Positions 11,508 to 19,841 of a stretch of DNA of 25,833 nt are shown piece after piece. The position numbers were made by a program, and so were the translations under genes. Where the stretch lies: the IMG/VR virus record IMGVR_UViG_2563366846_000009. One strand, 5' to 3'. This DNA comes from a virus (taxonomy: Duplodnaviria > Heunggongvirae > Uroviricota > Caudoviricetes). Positions within the stretch are counted from its first letter, which is position 1. Each line of letters starts with the position of its first letter. Under the pieces are notes generated by a model, which was not told where the DNA came from, ran no database searches, and saw nothing but the letters and a program-made list of their open reading frames with translations.

Positions 11508-12553
11508 TGAGCAGAAAAAATAAAAAAGTGCGCATGAGTTCACGCATTGATCTCGCTGATGTGCTCAGGAAAGAATCGTCGCTCAGTGCATTCACATTTG
11601 ATGGTCCTTACCGCCTGACCGGGCATGATTTGCTGGACAATATGTACTGTGCTGATAACGGTCGGTGGTATGAAACCCCGGTGGACTGGTACGGTCTGGC
11701 AAGAGCAGCCCGGCAAACGTCCTGGCATCAGTCTGCGCTTTACTTTAAGCGTAATGTATTGCTCGGTTGCTATATTCCGCACCCGCTGCTTTCCCGGCAG
11801 GATTTCTCGGCGCTGGCGCTGGACTGGTTTGTGTTCGGTAACGCATTCCTTGAGCTTCGAAGCAATATGCTCGGCGAACCACTTAAATTACGGCACGCCC
11901 TGGCGAAATACATGCGACGCGGAAGCGATCTTGAATCATGGTGGTATGTGCAGGATGGCAAGGACGCGTTTCAGTTTCGCCCTGGCAAAGTGTGCCACCT
12001 GATGAATCCTGACATTAACCAGGAAATCTACGGCATGCCGGAATATCTCGGCGCATTACTCTCGGCCAGCCTGTCTCATTCGGCGGACATGTTCAGAAAA
12101 CTGTATTACGACAACGGCTCCCACGCCGGGTGCATCATCTACATCGGTGCAGCGCAGGTAAGCCGCGAAAGCATGGACTCCCTGAAGGAAACGCTACAGG
12201 GTGCGCGTGGTGGTGGTGCATTTAAAAACGTGCTCATTCATGCGCCCAACGGGGGCAAAGAGGGGGTGCAAATTTTGCCGTTCCAGCAGATCACCGCAAA
12301 GGATGAGTTCATGAATGTTAAGGCGGCATCCCGTGATGATGTGCTGGCTGCGCACCGCGTTCCGCCGCAACTGATGGGGGCGATGCCGGGTGAAAAAAGT
12401 GCGTTTGGTGATGTGGAGAAGGCCGCGCGGGTTTACGCAATTAACGAGCTGATGCCCGTCATGGAGGCCATGAAGCACATCAATGACTGGCTTGGCGAAG
12501 AGGTGATCCGTTTTAACTCTTATGCACTTCTTGATGAAAAAACAGCCCCGTGA
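11507..12553 (+). CDS. Q: Portal protein Q
   Basis: 348-aa ORF overlapping the P stop by one base, size and position of P2 gpQ. Confidence 0.9.
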   Translation: MSRKNKKVRMSSRIDLADVLRKESSLSAFTFDGPYRLTGHDLLDNMYCADNGRWYETPVDWYGLARAARQTSWHQSALYFKRNVLLGCYIPHPLLSRQDFSALALDWFVFGNAFLELRSNMLGEPLKLRHALAKYMRRGSDLESWWYVQDGKDAFQFRPGKVCHLMNPDINQEIYGMPEYLGALLSASLSHSADMFRKLYYDNGSHAGCIIYIGAAQVSRESMDSLKETLQGARGGGAFKNVLIHAPNGGKEGVQILPFQQITAKDEFMNVKAASRDDVLAAHRVPPQLMGAMPGEKSAFGDVEKAARVYAINELMPVMEAMKHINDWLGEEVIRFNSYALLDEKTAP

Positions 12554-12570
12554 TGGGGCTGTCCTTTTTA
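12540..12570. terminator. Bidirectional intrinsic terminator between convergent Q and the 174-aa gene
   Basis: Hairpin cagccccgtgatggggctg flanked by an A-run upstream and tccttttta downstream, so it reads as stem plus U-tract on both strands. The Q stop codon sits in the loop. Confidence 0.6.
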
Positions 12571-13624: not shown

Positions 13625-13650
13625 TAAACGCCCTGGAGGAGGGCGTTTTA
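13624..13650 (-). terminator. Intrinsic terminator downstream of the 135-aa gene
   Basis: Stem aacgccct / agggcgtt with loop ggagg directly after the stop at 13652; minus strand continues tttatttc. Confidence 0.55.
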
Positions 13651-14388: not shown

Positions 14389-14653
14389 TGTGTCCCCCTT
14401 GTTTATGTTCCCGGGTTAAAGTCATCAGGGCGGATGCGCCCTGATGTTGTGTTATTCGGGAAATAACGCCCGGATATTTCCGGCCATCTGACTGGTTATC
14501 TGTGCGGTTGGTACTGGCTGTGACACGGGGCGTTCTGTCCTACAATCAACCTCAGAGCATGGGCTATCCGGGATGGCCTCATACCACGCCAGCGTCGACT
14601 GATAGTTTTGTGCTGCCTCACGCAGTGCCTGGTAATTAATTTCGCTCACTGGT
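14389..14653. repeat. Copy B of a duplicated module (block P 14389..14541 plus block G 14542..14653)
   Basis: Block P is about 93 percent identical to 15601..15756 (3' end of parR, intergenic hairpin, RBS and ATG of the next gene). Block G is about 90 percent identical to 15493..15603 (5' end of the 213-aa gene). Block order is swapped relative to copy A. Confidence 0.75.
14452..14649 (-). CDS. Small chimeric ORF (65 aa from a GTG start): conserved SEINYQALREAAQNYQSTLAWYEAI motif fused to a ParR-like C-terminal tail
   Basis: GTG at 14649 is preceded by GGAGG at 6-nt spacing. The N-terminal 25 aa match the 213-aa protein exactly despite six synonymous DNA changes. The C-terminal 27 aa (ERPVSQPVPTAQITSQMAGNIRALFPE) match the ParR-like protein tail. 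The track calls a longer 98-aa version from 14748. Confidence 0.4.
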   Translation of the reverse strand: MSEINYQALREAAQNYQSTLAWYEAIPDSPCSEVDCRTERPVSQPVPTAQITSQMAGNIRALFPE

Positions 14654-14965
14654 TGCCTCCTGTTTGAATCTGCGCACGGAAAGAATTGGGCATTTTGTAA
14701 TCCCGCCCTCTTTCTCCCATCGGAGGAGCGGGAATCGATATGCTTCAAAATTAAGCCCCGCAGAGCGATCGCTTTGGAAGCATTTCTTACCTACCACCCA
14801 AACGTTTTCGAATCGACGCTCAATGCGAACTGCCGTCCTCCATCCGAATGGCGCGCCTGCATTTACGGCTGCATTTTTTGTCGGAAAAGTTGGCACGGAT
14901 GACACAATTTCATCAACACGCACGCTTAGGTGGCAATCGTCGACATAACTAATTGAAGCTCTCAT
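14636..14965 (-). CDS. Hypothetical 109-aa protein, coupled to the 213-aa gene
   Basis: ATG at 14965 overlaps the 213-aa stop (ATGA). No recognisable motif. Confidence 0.5.
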   Translation of the reverse strand: MRASISYVDDCHLSVRVDEIVSSVPTFPTKNAAVNAGAPFGWRTAVRIERRFENVWVVGKKCFQSDRSAGLNFEAYRFPLLRWEKEGGITKCPILSVRRFKQEATSERN

Positions 14966-15603
14966 GACTGAACTCCTTTGCGAAGCTGCTCCGCACAATG
15001 CAGCAGGGCGTCCGTCGCTTCTTTCACCGTAACGATGTCGCCATCGTCCAGCCCGGCAACCGTCGCGTCCTTAACGAACACCGAGCAAAGGTCATTAAAC
15101 GCCTGCGCTCGTACTTCAGCCAGAAAAGCATTGGTGGCTGGGGTTTCCGGCAATAATCCGCCAACCAGTTCTATTTCTGTTCTGAACCGGGAACTAGACA
15201 CAACGCGATAAGTCAGGTTCGGCATTCTGGCTGCCACTTGCATCTCAAACTCCTCTCCAGATTCCAGCCCGGCTTCATGGGCGTAATCAAGCGGGCTTCT
15301 GACAGGCTCTGAAGCTTCGCCGCCCCAGTAAATCAGGTTCGACTTCAGCCCTGCATTCTCCGCAGCCAGCACCGCAAGATTAGCCTCCAGCTCTGCAATA
15401 CGCTTGTTTTGGGCTTCCCGCTCATCCAGCAGCTCGGCGATAATGTCCATTTCCTGATGACGGATTTGACGCTTAAACGCCGCCACTGCTTCGCTACAAT
15501 CCTGCTCAGCATTTGGGTTATCCGTGATGGCCTCATACCACGCCAGCGTCGATTGATAGTTTTGTGCCGCCTCACGTAATGCCTGATAGTTGATTTCGCT
15601 CAT
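14962..15603 (-). CDS. Hypothetical 213-aa protein with conserved N-terminal motif and central coiled-coil-like region
   Basis: ATG preceded by AAGGAG. Heptad-like stretch REAQNKRIAELEANLAVLAAENAGLKSNL and an acidic C-terminal half. Possible resemblance to Ead/Ea22-like prophage proteins is unverified. Confidence 0.65.
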   Translation of the reverse strand: MSEINYQALREAAQNYQSTLAWYEAITDNPNAEQDCSEAVAAFKRQIRHQEMDIIAELLDEREAQNKRIAELEANLAVLAAENAGLKSNLIYWGGEASEPVRSPLDYAHEAGLESGEEFEMQVAARMPNLTYRVVSSSRFRTEIELVGGLLPETPATNAFLAEVRAQAFNDLCSVFVKDATVAGLDDGDIVTVKEATDALLHCAEQLRKGVQS

Positions 15604-15756
15604 TATGTCGTTCTCCTTGTTTATGCTCTGAGGTGGAGATCAGGACGAACTCGCCCTGACGTTGTGTTATTCAGGAAATAACGCCCGGATATTTTCAGCC
15701 ATCTGACTGGTTATCTGTGCGGTTGGTGCTGGCTGTGACACGGGGCGTTCCGTCCT
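15493..15756. repeat. Copy A of the duplicated module (block G 15493..15603, block P 15601..15756)
   Basis: Counterpart of 14389..14653; includes the imperfect hairpin caggacgaactcgccctg just after the parR stop. Confidence 0.75.
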
Positions 15757-15978
15757 GTTTTGTGTCACTGATAACGCCTCATCGTCAGCCCATGCAGCCA
15801 GTCGGTAAGCCTCTGCCGGATTCATTTTCAGAAGTGCCAGCCCGGCCATAAAAGCCACGCGTTGACCGCTTTTGTGGGCTTCTGGTGTAAGGCTGTCCAG
15901 CCAGGCGCATGCTTCGCCTTCGTTCTTGACGGCGGCGGGCTTCAGATAGAAACTTATCCTCCTGGTTGATGTCGCCAT
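15667..15978 (-). CDS. parR: ParR-like partition adaptor
   Basis: ATG at 15978 sits 4 nt after the parM stop with AAGGAG upstream. The 103-aa product aligns by eye with plasmid R1 ParR (ISFYLKP..., AGLAL..., C-terminal NIRALFPE versus ILRSLFPKE). The track shows a longer ORF from 16113. Confidence 0.7.
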   Translation of the reverse strand: MATSTRRISFYLKPAAVKNEGEACAWLDSLTPEAHKSGQRVAFMAGLALLKMNPAEAYRLAAWADDEALSVTQNRTERPVSQPAPTAQITSQMAENIRALFPE

Positions 15979-15982
15979 TGAT

Positions 15983-16942
15983 TTACTCCTTGTCCATTGC
16001 GTGCAGCCCATTAACCAGAGCAAACTGTGGCACCCCGTCCGCAATGAAAGTCGCATTAACTCCGCAGGCTTCGCGGATAGCGGGTGCCACAATCTCCGCT
16101 CCTCCACCGACAACCATCACCCGCCCGTAACCCGAAAAAACCGCCAGCGCGCGGATCACGCGTTGCTTCAGTGTTTCTTCCTTTTCACGAATAACCGCCA
16201 TCAGGCTGGCGTAATGCGCGTCATTGTGGATGTGCTGGCGCAGCCAGGCTTCATCATGGCGATGTTCGATAATGGTATTGGCGATGTGGTGACTGGTGCG
16301 CATACCGTTAGTGGCCATCACCGACAGTACGGCATCGGCCATCAGAGAAACGCCTACGTGTGGATCGCAAAACACCTGGCTGATACCTGCCAGTTGCCCC
16401 TGAACCTTTGCCACATCCAGCGTGGTTCCGCCCAAATCCACAATCAGCAGGGATTCAAACGGACTCATGTCAGCCAGTGCCTTAAAGCCAGCCGGAATGG
16501 ATTCAGGCATAACCCGCACGTTACGGATAGTGAATGCTTCGCCGTTCTGGTACTTCACCGGGCGCATAACGTTCGCTTTTTTGCGGTTGATGTTGGCCAT
16601 GTCCGGCTGTGCGTTTGTGTCGAAATACTCGCTCAGTGGCAGGGTGACAACCACATCCACCTCCTGTGGCGTGATGCCTGATTTGACCAGCGCGTGATGA
16701 ATGGCAATGACATTCACATCACTGTACTGGTATTGCGTGTCGGTTGTCTGGACAAAGCGATCGCTGACCGGATCAAAACCATAGCGCACGCCATCAAGCA
16801 TGTAGTTCGCGGGCTGCGTGCCACCGAACGGCGCAGACCATTCCGACTTGAAGCTGTTCGGGCTGATAGCGTTGCGGCGTTCGCCGTTCTCAGTCCATGC
16901 CAGCTTGATGTTGGTGGAGCCGTCGTCGATACAAATTTTCAT
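15983..16942 (-). CDS. parM: ParM/StbA actin-like partition ATPase
   Basis: 319-aa protein with extensive colinear similarity to R1 ParM: IDDGSTNIKL, ISPNSFK, YSDVNV, HHAL, MPESIPAG, SLLI(V/I)DLGGTTLD, LSGIS, GVSL, GGGAE, LVNG. Confidence 0.9.
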   Translation of the reverse strand: MKICIDDGSTNIKLAWTENGERRNAISPNSFKSEWSAPFGGTQPANYMLDGVRYGFDPVSDRFVQTTDTQYQYSDVNVIAIHHALVKSGITPQEVDVVVTLPLSEYFDTNAQPDMANINRKKANVMRPVKYQNGEAFTIRNVRVMPESIPAGFKALADMSPFESLLIVDLGGTTLDVAKVQGQLAGISQVFCDPHVGVSLMADAVLSVMATNGMRTSHHIANTIIEHRHDEAWLRQHIHNDAHYASLMAVIREKEETLKQRVIRALAVFSGYGRVMVVGGGAEIVAPAIREACGVNATFIADGVPQFALVNGLHAMDKE

Positions 16943-16971
16943 GTCGCTTTTCCTTATGTTGATTAATTAAT

Positions 16972-17086
16972 CGTTTACGGGATTCTGAAATCCCGCTTTT
17001 GCCTGTTTTGTGCGCGCTTCATATATCGCGGCACGTTTTTTGCTCATTTACGGGATTTGTGAATCCCGTTTTTGTCTGTTTTTTGT
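16972..17086. repeat. Two tandem about 40-bp repeats, each a 7-bp-stem hairpin plus T-tract, between the parM start and the A stop
   Basis: R1 at 16972..17012 (cgggatt ctga aatcccg, then cttttgcctgttttgtg) and R2 at 17044..17086 (cgggatt tgtg aatcccg, then tttttgtctgttttttg). R2 lies inside the last about 22 codons of the A ORF. Confidence 0.6.
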
Positions 17087-19841
17087 TTCCACTGGTCAGG
17101 CCACCCCGCAGCAGGTCTGCTTTGCGGCGGGCGCGTTCAGTGGTTTCACTGATTCTCTGTGTGTGCTCTGCGTCGCGGATGGCGCGCAGCATGTCAGAAA
17201 GCACGGTAACGGGGGTTTTCATGGTGTTCTGGCCCTGCTGAAGTGTGGATGCCAGGCGTGCGGCGGCTTCAGGGGCTGATGCCCCCAGCTGTTCCAGATA
17301 GCTGGCGACCGGGTTATGGCGGATCTCCGTGCTGCTTACGCCGTGATTGCGGCTCAGGCGCTGCCAGAGCTGCGTGATTCGGCTGTCCTGGCGGGTATCC
17401 GGTTTGCGTACAATTTCAAATCCCTGCGGTGCAATGATGCTGCCGTCAACGTACAGACTGCCGCCCCGTAACAGGTGCTGCATCTGCTGTTCACCGATAT
17501 GCAGGCCGAGAGATTCAGCAGACTCCCGCCATTCTTTAGCGAGTAATTCGTGGTTATCAGGCAAAGTCCGCTGCTGTTTGCGGCTCTGTGTCCAGCTCTG
17601 CATTTCATCACTGCTGTTTTTTGCCTGTTTGTCACGAAGCGAACGCATCAGCGTCCGGCGTTCGTGCCGTTTCAGTGAGCGCATCCATTCGTTCACTTCA
17701 ACGCCGTCAGGGAGCTGCGGCCACGGTGCTGACCGTTCTTCCGGCTGTTCTGTCCCGTTGTTGTCCGTTTCCTGTACACGAGGACAGTTATTGCCACGAG
17801 TCCAAGGGGCGGCAGGGCCGCCCTGAAGGTCAAAACCATTTTCGCGGGCGCTGTCTTCCGCTTCCGGTTTACGTCTTACCAGCTTCCAGTTATCCGGATG
17901 CGTGCACACACGGGAGGATTCCCCGATGAGTGGTGACCAGATCCCGTAAATCTGTACGCTCTGTTCGCCGTAATCGTTCAGCTCATCTGCGAGGTCGTAG
18001 GCGGTGCGAATCAGGTAGTCTTTACGTGGAACAAGTACGCCACCCTGTTTTTCAATGTAGGTGGCAAAACACCCGGCATCAGCGGCAGCAAGAACCGCAT
18101 CCATTGCGTCATCCTTCAGCCGTTGCGGGCCTTCCGGGTTGCGTGCCATCTGGCTGGCAAGGCGGCGCAGTTCACGCCACACCTGACGGGAGGGGATGCC
18201 AAAGAACTGGAACTGGCGGACCCGGTGAAGGCGCGCCCAGCCGATGGCGCGCTCCACGCTCTCGGCCATTGATTTTCCGGTTTCGTGGTCAACGCGTGGT
18301 TTGCCCGTTTTCGGGTCGATGCCATCCACGGCGCGGCTGTCCAGGTTCTTTCCGATGTAGGTGGCGATGTAGCTGGTTGGCGTGCCTTTTGAGCCGTCGA
18401 CATACTCCGCCTTAAAGCGCGGAGTTATGTCATTGCCCAGCTCGTGGCGGTCTTCGCGAATGGCAATATCACGGGTGATGTCCACGATGCTGTCGATTTC
18501 TTCAGGATGTGCAAAGACCATCATGTGCCAGTGCACCGTGCCTTCATGATGAGGCTCCGCCGTGCGGATGCCATACCAGCGCAGGCCGTCGCGGTTCAGT
18601 TTTTTGCGGACCGCCGCAAAAAACGTGTTAACCAGGTAATCGCTGGAGTCGCGCATGGTGGCCCCGTTCCATTTGGGGTTCGGATGACCGTTCTCCGTTG
18701 TTGCGTGGTATTTTGACGGGCAGGTGACAGTCAGAAACACCGCTTTGTCACCACGGGCTTCGGCCAGAAGTTCCAGCCCCTTCATGGTGGCCATCATTTC
18801 TGCCTTACGGTGAACCGGGTTACTTACTCCCGCGTAATACACTGTCTCGAGATCAATCGTGAACCCGTCTTCATTTTCCAGCATGAAACTTTTCAGGAAA
18901 TCGCGTGTTTTCTCGCGCTGTGCGCGAAACTCGCTTAACGCGTCCTGGCTCAGATAGGGTGATGTTTTTCTGGAAACCAGACAGGCGGCGCGGAGTTGTT
19001 CTTCCCGCCACTCACAACGTAACAGCCACAGTTTTCGTTTCCACCATTCCGCACAGGTCAGGCGAAGGATTGCGCCCGGCAGCAGCTCCGTGTCCGGTTC
19101 GTTCCTCTGGTCTTTGTCTGTTGTCAGTGCGTCATAATGTGGAGGCATGGCGTGCAGGTGTAACGCCATGCGGGCCAGCATCTGATACGCCTTCAGGGTT
19201 ACATCCATGGTCAGCTCGCCATCGGTCGCGCCAAAGCCATCGCAGAGTTTTTCGAAGGTGCTGCTGAACATCGCCGCCGTCATGGTGGCCAGCGTCTGTA
19301 TCTGGTGCTTGTTGAGCTGCGGCAGGTAAAGCAAATCGTCCAGGCGTTCGCGTCCGGCAAGGGAGCGATAACCCGGTGTCAGCCAGCGGCTGTCGGTGCG
19401 GTCCAGACGTTCGAATATTTTGCGCAGGGTTCCGCGTGCATAGCGTTCCGCCTGCCAGCTCTTTTTGCCTTTCCGGCGATCGGCTTCCTGTTTTTTGCGC
19501 AGGAAGGAGAGGTGGCGAATAAGCGGATCGCGCAGATAGGACGGCAGCAGGCGCAGCGAGGCCATGGCTTCATCCACCGCACCGCGTGCCTGTTTTCTGG
19601 CGTCTCCTGCCAGTGTGATGGTTTTGTCCTGTTTTTCCTGTGCGTCCAGGCTTTTATTAATCAGGTTGCCCAGCGGCGTGGCGGAGAACGCCGCATCAGC
19701 CATTTCCTGGCGGCGCTCGTTCTCTGCCCGGTAGGCATCCAGCCAGGAGGAAAGCGCGGATTCAGGAGCGGGGATCCCCGTTCCTTCACGCCCGACTGCG
19801 TGGCGCGGTTGTTGCCAGTCCCTGATGTACTCTGCCGTCAT
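17019..19841 (-). CDS. A: Replication initiator A (rolling-circle, HUH-type)
   Basis: 940-aa ORF containing EPHHEGTVHWHMMVF and YIATYIGKN, matching conserved P2 gpA motifs. True start may be internal; the ORF is longer than P2 gpA. Confidence 0.85.
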   Translation of the reverse strand: MTAEYIRDWQQPRHAVGREGTGIPAPESALSSWLDAYRAENERRQEMADAAFSATPLGNLINKSLDAQEKQDKTITLAGDARKQARGAVDEAMASLRLLPSYLRDPLIRHLSFLRKKQEADRRKGKKSWQAERYARGTLRKIFERLDRTDSRWLTPGYRSLAGRERLDDLLYLPQLNKHQIQTLATMTAAMFSSTFEKLCDGFGATDGELTMDVTLKAYQMLARMALHLHAMPPHYDALTTDKDQRNEPDTELLPGAILRLTCAEWWKRKLWLLRCEWREEQLRAACLVSRKTSPYLSQDALSEFRAQREKTRDFLKSFMLENEDGFTIDLETVYYAGVSNPVHRKAEMMATMKGLELLAEARGDKAVFLTVTCPSKYHATTENGHPNPKWNGATMRDSSDYLVNTFFAAVRKKLNRDGLRWYGIRTAEPHHEGTVHWHMMVFAHPEEIDSIVDITRDIAIREDRHELGNDITPRFKAEYVDGSKGTPTSYIATYIGKNLDSRAVDGIDPKTGKPRVDHETGKSMAESVERAIGWARLHRVRQFQFFGIPSRQVWRELRRLASQMARNPEGPQRLKDDAMDAVLAAADAGCFATYIEKQGGVLVPRKDYLIRTAYDLADELNDYGEQSVQIYGIWSPLIGESSRVCTHPDNWKLVRRKPEAEDSARENGFDLQGGPAAPWTRGNNCPRVQETDNNGTEQPEERSAPWPQLPDGVEVNEWMRSLKRHERRTLMRSLRDKQAKNSSDEMQSWTQSRKQQRTLPDNHELLAKEWRESAESLGLHIGEQQMQHLLRGGSLYVDGSIIAPQGFEIVRKPDTRQDSRITQLWQRLSRNHGVSSTEIRHNPVASYLEQLGASAPEAAARLASTLQQGQNTMKTPVTVLSDMLRAIRDAEHTQRISETTERARRKADLLRGGLTSGNKKQTKTGFTNPVNEQKTCRDI

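Follow-up and report, generated by a model that had tools for sequence, protein, structure and literature searches.

Paired palindromic repeats upstream of parM as a probable parC-type centromere of a P88-like prophage

Why should a viral genome carry two tandem hairpin-forming repeats immediately upstream of an actin-like partition gene, oriented as terminators on a strand that has no gene for them to terminate? The question is raised by IMG/VR virus record IMGVR_UViG_2563366846_000009 (Caudoviricetes), a stretch of 25,833 nucleotides that we refer to in its whole length as the window, where one repeat lies in the end of the replication endonuclease gene (gpA) and the other in the gap between gpA and parM. 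An earlier note on this DNA had remarked that the repeats occupy the place in which one would look for a parC-like centromere and promoter, and had offered antisense termination as a possible function. Our reading, to which we assign a probability of about 0.75, is that the two repeats are the cis-acting site of a type II ParM/ParR cassette on a P88-like prophage of the P2 family, serving as its parC-type centromere and probably as its operator too. The conserved anatomy of the repeats, their fixed spacing, their linkage to parM and their likeness to plasmid parC sites all favour a site of this type. The kind of element is an ordinary one, found in the uncommon setting of a P2-like prophage and with a somewhat unusual palindromic two-box layout that overlaps a coding sequence.

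Anatomy of the repeats and their linkage to parM

A repeat search of the window identified a direct-repeat family of two 42-nt copies, R1 proximal and R2 distal to parM (Table 1), which are 81% identical and lie 73 bp apart from start to start. Each copy contains a perfect 7-bp inverted repeat with a 4-nt loop, followed on the plus strand by a T-rich tract, so the pair of direct repeats of about 40 bp that the earlier note had described was recovered with all of its parts, and the perfect palindrome of R2 is allele-specific, since P88 and about one third of the close relatives carry CGGGACT...AATCCCG instead. The 22-nt motif TTTACGGGATTNNNNAATCCCG occurs exactly twice in the window, an extra listed match being the R2 palindrome read on the opposite strand, and about 0.02 matches would be expected by chance even with 3 mismatches allowed. 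Elsewhere in the 25.8 kb the box motif was not found, besides one site at chance level (0.98 expected at 2 or fewer mismatches), GGCATTTTGTAATCCC at 14689-14704 on the plus strand, which matches the box core with 1 mismatch about 1 kb downstream of parR. Relative to the parM ATG the repeats span -36 to -143, with the boxes starting at -53 (R1) and -126 (R2), and the 73-bp spacing corresponds to seven helical turns. T-runs starting at 16997, 17006, 17036, 17069 and 17079 fall on the same face of the helix (R=0.84 at a 10.5-bp period, p about 0.02) and give the strongest phased-tract signal in the 25.8 kb (vector sum 4.21; next best 3.07).

A contig scan with ParM returned only 3 near-identical loci, and diverged relatives were reached by searching for ParR and ParM homologues and then retrieving the contigs that encode them. 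Five P2-like lineages, the window included, have two GGG-N10-CCC boxes that start at -52 to -60 and at -125 to -132 from the parM ATG and are 72-74 bp apart. The window has CGGGATT-N4-AATCCCG twice at 73 bp, and a Hafnia lineage (L094/L093), whose ParR is 70% identical to that of the window, has GGGATTCATGAATCCC and GGGATTTGAAAATCCC at the same distance. E. coli L097 (ParR 53%) has the boxes of the window 74 bp apart, in the end of an extra open reading frame (ORF) of 153 codons that separates gpA from parM; Plesiomonas L098 (ParM 63%) has GCGGGACAACAAAAACCCGAAATAGC twice at 72 bp; and Hafnia L101 (ParM 62%) has GGGATTGAGGAAACCC and GGGTTCATTAAATCCC at 73 bp, in the end of an unrelated 167-codon ORF. 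Serratia L099 and Enterobacter L100 (ParM 54-58%) carry GGGAAC...ATAGAAAAAT boxes, the two copies inverted around a 26-28-bp centre. In L097, L101 and L100, gpA and parM are parted by one or two unrelated ORFs and the boxes remain just upstream of parM, so that, to judge from these genomes, they travel with parM and not with gpA. The common denominator is evidently GGG-N10-CCC, present twice, seven helical turns apart and beside parM; the potential to form a hairpin is not part of it.

The pattern GGGATT-N4-AATCCC-N50-62-GGGATT-N4-AATCCC was found in 93 stretches among 2.9 million viral contigs, and its span was always 88-90 nt. We checked 80 of the 93, and parM adjoins the boxes in 79 of them, 77 with a full-length match that starts 37 nt downstream; within this checked set the double-box pattern appears to be specific to the regions upstream of parM. 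The remaining stretch (L173:5085-6400) keeps the first 45 nt or so of parM, followed by an inserted ORF of 420 codons, and retains both boxes. The pattern bears directly on whether the repeat could be a recent neutral duplication without function. Such an origin would suit a family of only two copies of which natural single-copy deletion variants exist, but the pair, its spacing and its position are kept where ParM is only 62-63% identical and the flanks can no longer be aligned, and within the checked set the pattern is exclusive to parM-upstream regions, which leaves a neutral duplication scarcely probable. The placement that the earlier note expected of a parC-like centromere is thus supported by comparative anatomy, namely the ParM and ParR families of the neighbouring genes, the paired boxes in five lineages, their movement with parM and a block spacing of 72-73 bp in plasmids.

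The predicted DNA-binding head of ParR also tracks the box type. Direct GGG-N10-CCC pairs accompany TRR(I/V)SFYL heads, the inverted GGGAAC...ATAGAAAAAT boxes of Serratia and Enterobacter accompany NRKISFYL, and the RRTIAFKL (R1) and NRKCSFYI (IncL/M) heads each accompany iterons of their own. All ParR alleles with GGGATT boxes have the TRRISFYLKP head, even at 48-55% overall identity. Conservation among the alleles covers the N-terminal 65 residues and the C-terminal NIRALFPE, and the linker between these parts (residues 66-95 or so) is hypervariable. At least three ParR allele classes, mutually 48-55% identical, stand beside ParM proteins that are 97-99% identical.

If the centromere reading is right, ParR dimers would bind each block through the conserved N-terminal TRRISFYLKP reading head, a block being a GGG-N10-CCC box preceded by helically phased A-tract sub-repeats. 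The 73-bp offset would place both blocks on the same face of intrinsically bent DNA and allow one joint nucleoprotein complex to form, in which the C-terminal NIRALFPE tail of ParR could capture the ends of ParM filaments, and the filaments would then push circular copies of the phage genome apart. ParR binding would probably also control transcription of parMR. What the comparisons show is the anatomy of the site, its conservation and linkage to parM, the families to which ParM and ParR belong and the unconstrained gpA tail; the binding of ParR and its stoichiometry, the bending of the DNA, autoregulation and the role of the system in the phage life cycle are what we infer.

A map of the variation among 80 near-identical relatives showed that the loops and the inter-block spacer vary most; in the arms, 6 or more of the 7 positions are kept. 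In L018, one of these relatives, exactly 73 bp are lost, so that R2 and R1 are joined in a single hybrid block and the gpA tail is shortened, and two further IMG/VR loci have a deletion of the same kind.

Several observations weigh against a parC-type site. Polymorphisms within the arms are common (R2 T->C in about one third of the relatives, R1 C->T in about one quarter) and natural single-block variants exist, with three single-box combinations in all in a wider tabulation that includes the loci of the pattern scan (L018 and two IMG/VR loci), which together indicate that the constraint is moderate and not strict. The boxes do not co-vary with the 48-55%-identical ParR alleles of close relatives; because the DNA-binding heads of these alleles are identical and only the linker differs, this comparison is uninformative and not negative. 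The phasing statistic is modest and is in part a consequence of the duplication itself. Promoter scans of 15500-17600 in the window and of four relatives found no sigma-70 consensus, which makes the operator role a conjecture and autoregulation an analogy; by eye, the spacer holds a weak promoter-like pair (ATGAGC-16 nt-TATATG, and ATGAAC-17 nt-TATAAG in L094), and expression of parMR may come from read-through of the early operon. The AlphaFold2 monomer model of ParR has a mean confidence (predicted local distance difference test) of 57, and its best Foldseek match, pB171 ParR, is non-significant (E=2, TM about 0.4); the model has helices at 20-29, 32-52 and 54-61 after an extended N-terminus, and the ribbon-helix-helix strand arises only in the dimer. 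The parC site of plasmid R1 consists of two sets of five direct 11-bp iterons around a 39-bp promoter core (PMC2241845), whereas the window has two blocks of about 42 nt, each with an 18-bp inverted repeat as its core and about two clear A-tract sub-repeats; this departs from the architecture specific to R1 and not from the general class, whose centromeres vary widely. Lastly, the literature that we searched contained no binding, stabilisation or incompatibility experiment on this system, and no description of a centromere in a P88-like or Xuanwuvirus phage.

Table 1. Coordinates of the repeat blocks, their boxes and the neighbouring genes in the window
Feature	Position	Strand	Description
R2, distal repeat block	17044-17085	-	On the parM-coding strand, A-tract sub-repeats CAAAAAACAG and ACAAAAACGGG, then the palindromic box; within the last 22 gpA codons; position relative to the parM ATG conserved between lineages at about -126
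Distal box, CGGGATT-N4-AATCCCG (general form GGG-N10-CCC)	17051-17068		CGGGATT-TGTG-AATCCCG; stem reaches 8 bp at 17050-17069; proposed ParR recognition core; arms mostly conserved and loop variable in 80 relatives
31-bp inter-block spacer	17013-17043	-	Fifth phased A-tract CAAAAAAC; gpA stop codon at 17021-17019; most polymorphic stretch of the region
R1, proximal repeat block	16971-17012	-	CACAAAACAGG, CAAAAGCGGG, palindromic box, then GTAAACGA; in the gpA-parM intergenic gap; box start conserved at -52 to -60 in five lineages
Proximal box, CGGGATT-N4-AATCCCG	16978-16995		CGGGATT-CTGA-AATCCCG; from consensus scan, motif search and lineage comparison
gpA, replication endonuclease, 940 aa	17019-19841	-	Pfam Phage_GPA, E=7.9e-130; last 22 or so codons (17022-17087) overlap the element
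parM, actin-like segregation ATPase, 319 aa	15983-16942	-	Pfam StbA_N, E=2.5e-82; ParM C-terminal domain, E=2.1e-68
parR/stbB, predicted centromere-binding adaptor, 103 aa	15667-15978	-	PF10784, E=7e-22; TRRISFYLKP N-terminal head, hypervariable linker, C-terminal NIRALFPE tail

Hairpins, antisense transcription and other binding proteins

In a consensus scan both repeats scored as terminator-like, on the plus strand only, with stems of 7-8 bp that include 4 G-C pairs, 4-nt loops and T-rich tails, and the plus-strand hairpins fold with -9.1 and -10.2 kcal/mol. The same look is retained in P88 and in the Hafnia L094 lineage. On this ground the repeats could be Rho-independent terminators of plus-strand antisense transcripts that shield parM and gpA from convergent transcription, much as the earlier note had suggested, and its remark that no plus-strand gene lies upstream is correct for 4.4 kb. 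All ORFs of any standing from the end of portal gene Q (12553) to the repeats are, however, on the minus strand, and three strong plus-strand terminator-like hairpins with stems of 9-10 bp lie downstream of Q, at 12542-12562 (right at the end of Q), 13626-13648 and 14423-14446. These are likely to be real terminators of late P-Q operon read-through towards the cos region, and being stronger than the repeat hairpins they would end such read-through 2.5-4.4 kb before the repeats. Plesiomonas L098 and Hafnia L101 keep the boxes and the 72-73 bp spacing, but no terminator-like site was found in these regions by the consensus scan and their hairpin equivalents fold no better than shuffled sequences (z -0.5 and -0.7). 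The boxes of Serratia and Enterobacter are mutually inverted, as would suit a site for a protein but not two terminators that point the same way, and the arm polymorphisms keep a wobble pair on the plus strand for R2 only, so that no consistent selection at the RNA level was seen. A function in stopping antisense transcription is therefore unlikely, and the two repeat hairpins should not be annotated as terminators. Under the centromere reading, the terminator-like look would be a by-product of a palindromic protein site beside A/T-tract iterons.

The same hairpins could instead act in the sense (minus-strand) gpA-parM transcript, as a processing or stability element or as a translational insulator. 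They are stable on that strand (-10.7 and -11.0 kcal/mol), with z-scores of -5.1 and -4.5 in a range of -2.2 to -5.1 against shuffles for the hairpins as a whole, and the Shine-Dalgarno sequence of parM follows some 20 nt after the proximal hairpin. A sense RNA element is nevertheless hard to reconcile with the loss of hairpin potential in L098 and L101, where the boxes are kept, or with loops that vary freely. The R2 T->C change that is found in about one third of the relatives gives a C·A mismatch in the sense RNA, no U-tract follows the hairpins on the minus strand, and the Rfam 15 covariance models gave no match at E<=1 on either strand of 16700-17400. Single arm transitions keep a wobble pair on the plus strand for R2 and on the minus strand for R1, and no compensatory double changes in the arms were seen among the 80 relatives; taken together, wobble on opposite strands and missing compensatory pairs lend no support to selection for an RNA hairpin on either strand, and we consider this explanation very improbable. 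Folding of the whole region also produced long-range pairing between R1 and R2, which was set aside as the trivial outcome of two identical palindromes.

Should the boxes be a protein site, the protein could still be something other than ParR, such as gpA at the replication origin or a regulator of the phage or the host. The P2 origin lies inside gene A, gpA is annotated in P2 as an HUH nickase and R2 lies in the end of gpA, and many dimeric DNA-binding proteins would fit a palindrome whose half-sites are about one helical turn apart. The nick site of P2, however, which is at 29892 and 427 nt short of the A stop, aligns to gpA residues 676-686 or so, that is to about 17790-17815 of the window on the minus strand and some 720 bp from the repeats. 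There the DNA (GCCGCCCCTTGGACTCGTGGCAATAACTGT in the window vs GCCGCGCCTCGGAGTCCTGTCAATAACTGT in P2; P2 ori GCCGCGCC^TCGGAGTCCTGTCAATAACTGT) and the protein (GGPAAPWTRGNNC vs SGIAAPRSPVNNC) can both be aligned, and this place inside gpA is the probable nick site of the replication origin. The repeats were accordingly rejected as a P2-type replication origin, since the nick-site homologue maps elsewhere in gpA. For any other binder, too, it is awkward that the boxes stay with parM where other genes part gpA from parM, and that within the window the motif recurs only as the single chance-level site. A binder other than ParR is in our estimate as improbable as the sense RNA element.

The end of gpA and the genome setting

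The earlier note had pointed out that R2 overlaps the last 22 or so codons of the 940-codon gpA ORF, which the position of the stop codon bears out, and had suggested that the gpA C-terminus may be a read-through into repeat DNA. Over these residues we found many nonsynonymous changes (K/E, F/L/S, V/A, C/R, R/S/H, D/K and others) against one synonymous change, together with several tails that are frameshifted or extended within homopolymer runs, and the variant with 73 bp deleted. Distant gpA homologues of other P2-like phages align only as far as residue 800-850 or so. In Hafnia L094 a TGA within the loop of R2 terminates gpA, which is 48% identical across its final 200 residues, and the gpA of L097 (79% identical) stops at the equivalent of residue 873 or so and is followed by the unrelated 153-codon ORF, whose last 16 residues, EKQTETGFTNPVNEQK, are the R2-encoded peptide. 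Alignment of the gpA C-terminus with its homologues, which the earlier note had put forward as a check, thus showed that the residues encoded across R2 are not conserved. The variable tail, the Hafnia stop and the occurrence of the same peptide on an unrelated ORF indicate that the peptide is dictated by the DNA element and attached to whichever ORF enters it, so that the idea of read-through is well supported. The last 22 or so codons of gpA appear to be incidental, and would exist only because the ORF meets the element before a stop. A DNA element of this kind can write the C-terminal tail of any upstream ORF, and for annotation it follows that the last 22 or so residues of the endonuclease should not be taken for functional protein sequence.

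Escherichia phage P88 and other genomes of Xuanwuvirus (P2-like, Peduoviridae) match the region at 94-97% identity. On the minus strand gpA is followed by a 76-bp gap that holds R1, then by parM and by a gene of the ParR/StbB family that starts 5 nt past the end of parM. ParM matches the structures of R1 ParM (1mwk and others) over residues 2-315 with E=3.5e-92, and is 46-52% identical to thousands of enterobacterial plasmid ParM proteins and 47.8% identical to StbA of phage-plasmid D6. The window ParR alone gave no match by sequence in the PDB, and a ParR-family profile that holds the window protein together with plasmid ParR proteins matches pB171 ParR (2jd3) with E=7.9e-14. Going by these matches, parM encodes a genuine ParM of the R1 class and the gene after it a PF10784 ParR.

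A 501-bp query across the repeats matched 1371 of 5426 complete E. coli genomes, nearly always in the chromosome; O157:H7 NE92 is one of the strains that carry the prophage. P2-like prophages of Hafnia, Plesiomonas, Serratia, Enterobacter and Escherichia commonly have the parM-parR pair downstream of gpA, and the system occurs in such prophages of Salmonella as well. What follows parR varies, with a HicA/HicB toxin-antitoxin pair, a KAP NTPase or a pair of a helix-turn-helix protein and Peptidase_M78 among the cargo (L099:5950-6584; L100:5911-7257; L096:1715-2833), which suggests that the slot is a variable accessory or defence island. Three database records are of a different kind. NZ_CP148288.1, a 34,461-bp circular E. 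coli 'plasmid', is a complete P88-like phage genome, which may hint at an episomal form or may be merely an assembled induced phage; NZ_MK439959.1 has a P88-like prophage integrated in an IncC KPC plasmid; and NZ_JBQPOM010000071.1, a 226-kb contig labelled 'Vagococcus sp. WN89Y', holds a 97%-identical E. coli-type P88-like prophage region, the label being probably due to assembly contamination or mislabelling.

Should ParR bind the boxes, they would define the centromere of a type II partition system carried by very many E. coli chromosomes, and would offer a compact site of about 130 bp on which to study why segregation machinery of the plasmid kind is retained by a phage that integrates. One answer, which we put forward as a speculation and think rather doubtful, is that integrating P88-like prophages have an actively segregated episomal stage, in which ParMR and the two-box centromere would position or partition circular genomes ahead of integration, in a carrier state or while rolling-circle replication is under way. 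The centromere at the 3' end of the cis-acting gpA gene would then link replication to partition on a single segment of DNA, and the boxes might in addition act as bidirectional barriers to antisense transcription.

Comparison with plasmid and prophage segregation systems

In order to compare the site with plasmid centromeres, parM loci from plasmids and from phage D6 were retrieved and their upstream regions read alongside the window. As in R1/NR1 parC, the site is directly upstream of parM-parR and the partner proteins are homologous. Both have two repeat blocks around a short core, with 72 bp between corresponding iterons in an R1/NR1-like locus (L089) and 73 bp here, and in both the units are rich in A-tracts, which recur with a 10-11-bp period and lie on the coding strand. 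In the R1/NR1-like locus a TTGACT...TAAACT promoter is flanked by two blocks of A-tract iterons, AACCCAAAA, of 10-11 bp. R1 parC is strongly curved and takes up about one ParR dimer per iteron (PMC2241845). The 31-bp spacer of the window corresponds to the promoter core that parts the two sets of iterons in R1 parC, but the 39-bp core of R1 has a clear promoter and the spacer has no consensus promoter. Unlike R1 parC, moreover, the distal block here lies within coding sequence, and the replicon is an integrating P2-like prophage and not a plasmid.

The closest plasmid homologues of ParM, at 52% identity, are those of an IncL/M locus (L085) and an IncFIA locus (L086). In the IncL/M locus CTGTATTTTTC iterons are spaced at 10 and 73 bp; the IncFIA locus contains GGTTTTTGTCTGTGTTTTTC, nearly identical to CGTTTTTGTCTGTTTTTTG on the plus strand of the window, and an iteron run, GTTTTTGTCTGTGTTTTTC, that nearly equals GTTTTTGTCTGTTTTTTG of the window plus strand, which the CTGTATTTTTC iterons also resemble. 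Given such A/T-tract iterons in plasmids, the T-rich 'terminator tails' of the window look like A/T tracts of the iteron type. These two loci differ from the window in that their T-tracts are on the parM coding strand, the opposite orientation, in lacking a GGGATT palindrome and in having a good promoter, TTTACA-17-TAATAAT, between the blocks, and their ParR proteins have 140-147 residues and are only 23-29% identical to that of the window.

The ParR family, through the profile match to 2jd3, is shared with the structurally characterised type II systems of pB171 and pSK41. In these complexes ribbon-helix-helix dimers bind arrays of units of about 10 bp and form a curved or helical scaffold, and the centromeres are arrays of direct repeats, unlike the window, whose recognisable core is an inverted repeat that is present twice.

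Actin-like segregation systems are also found on other integrating elements. AlpA/AlpC/alpS of the Corynebacterium prophage CGP3 and srpMRC of the SXT/R391 integrative and conjugative elements are thought to act on the excised or replicating form of the element (PMC5539076, PMC4489591). These systems share with the window an actin-like segregation system on an integrating mobile element, and differ from it in host lineage and protein subfamily.

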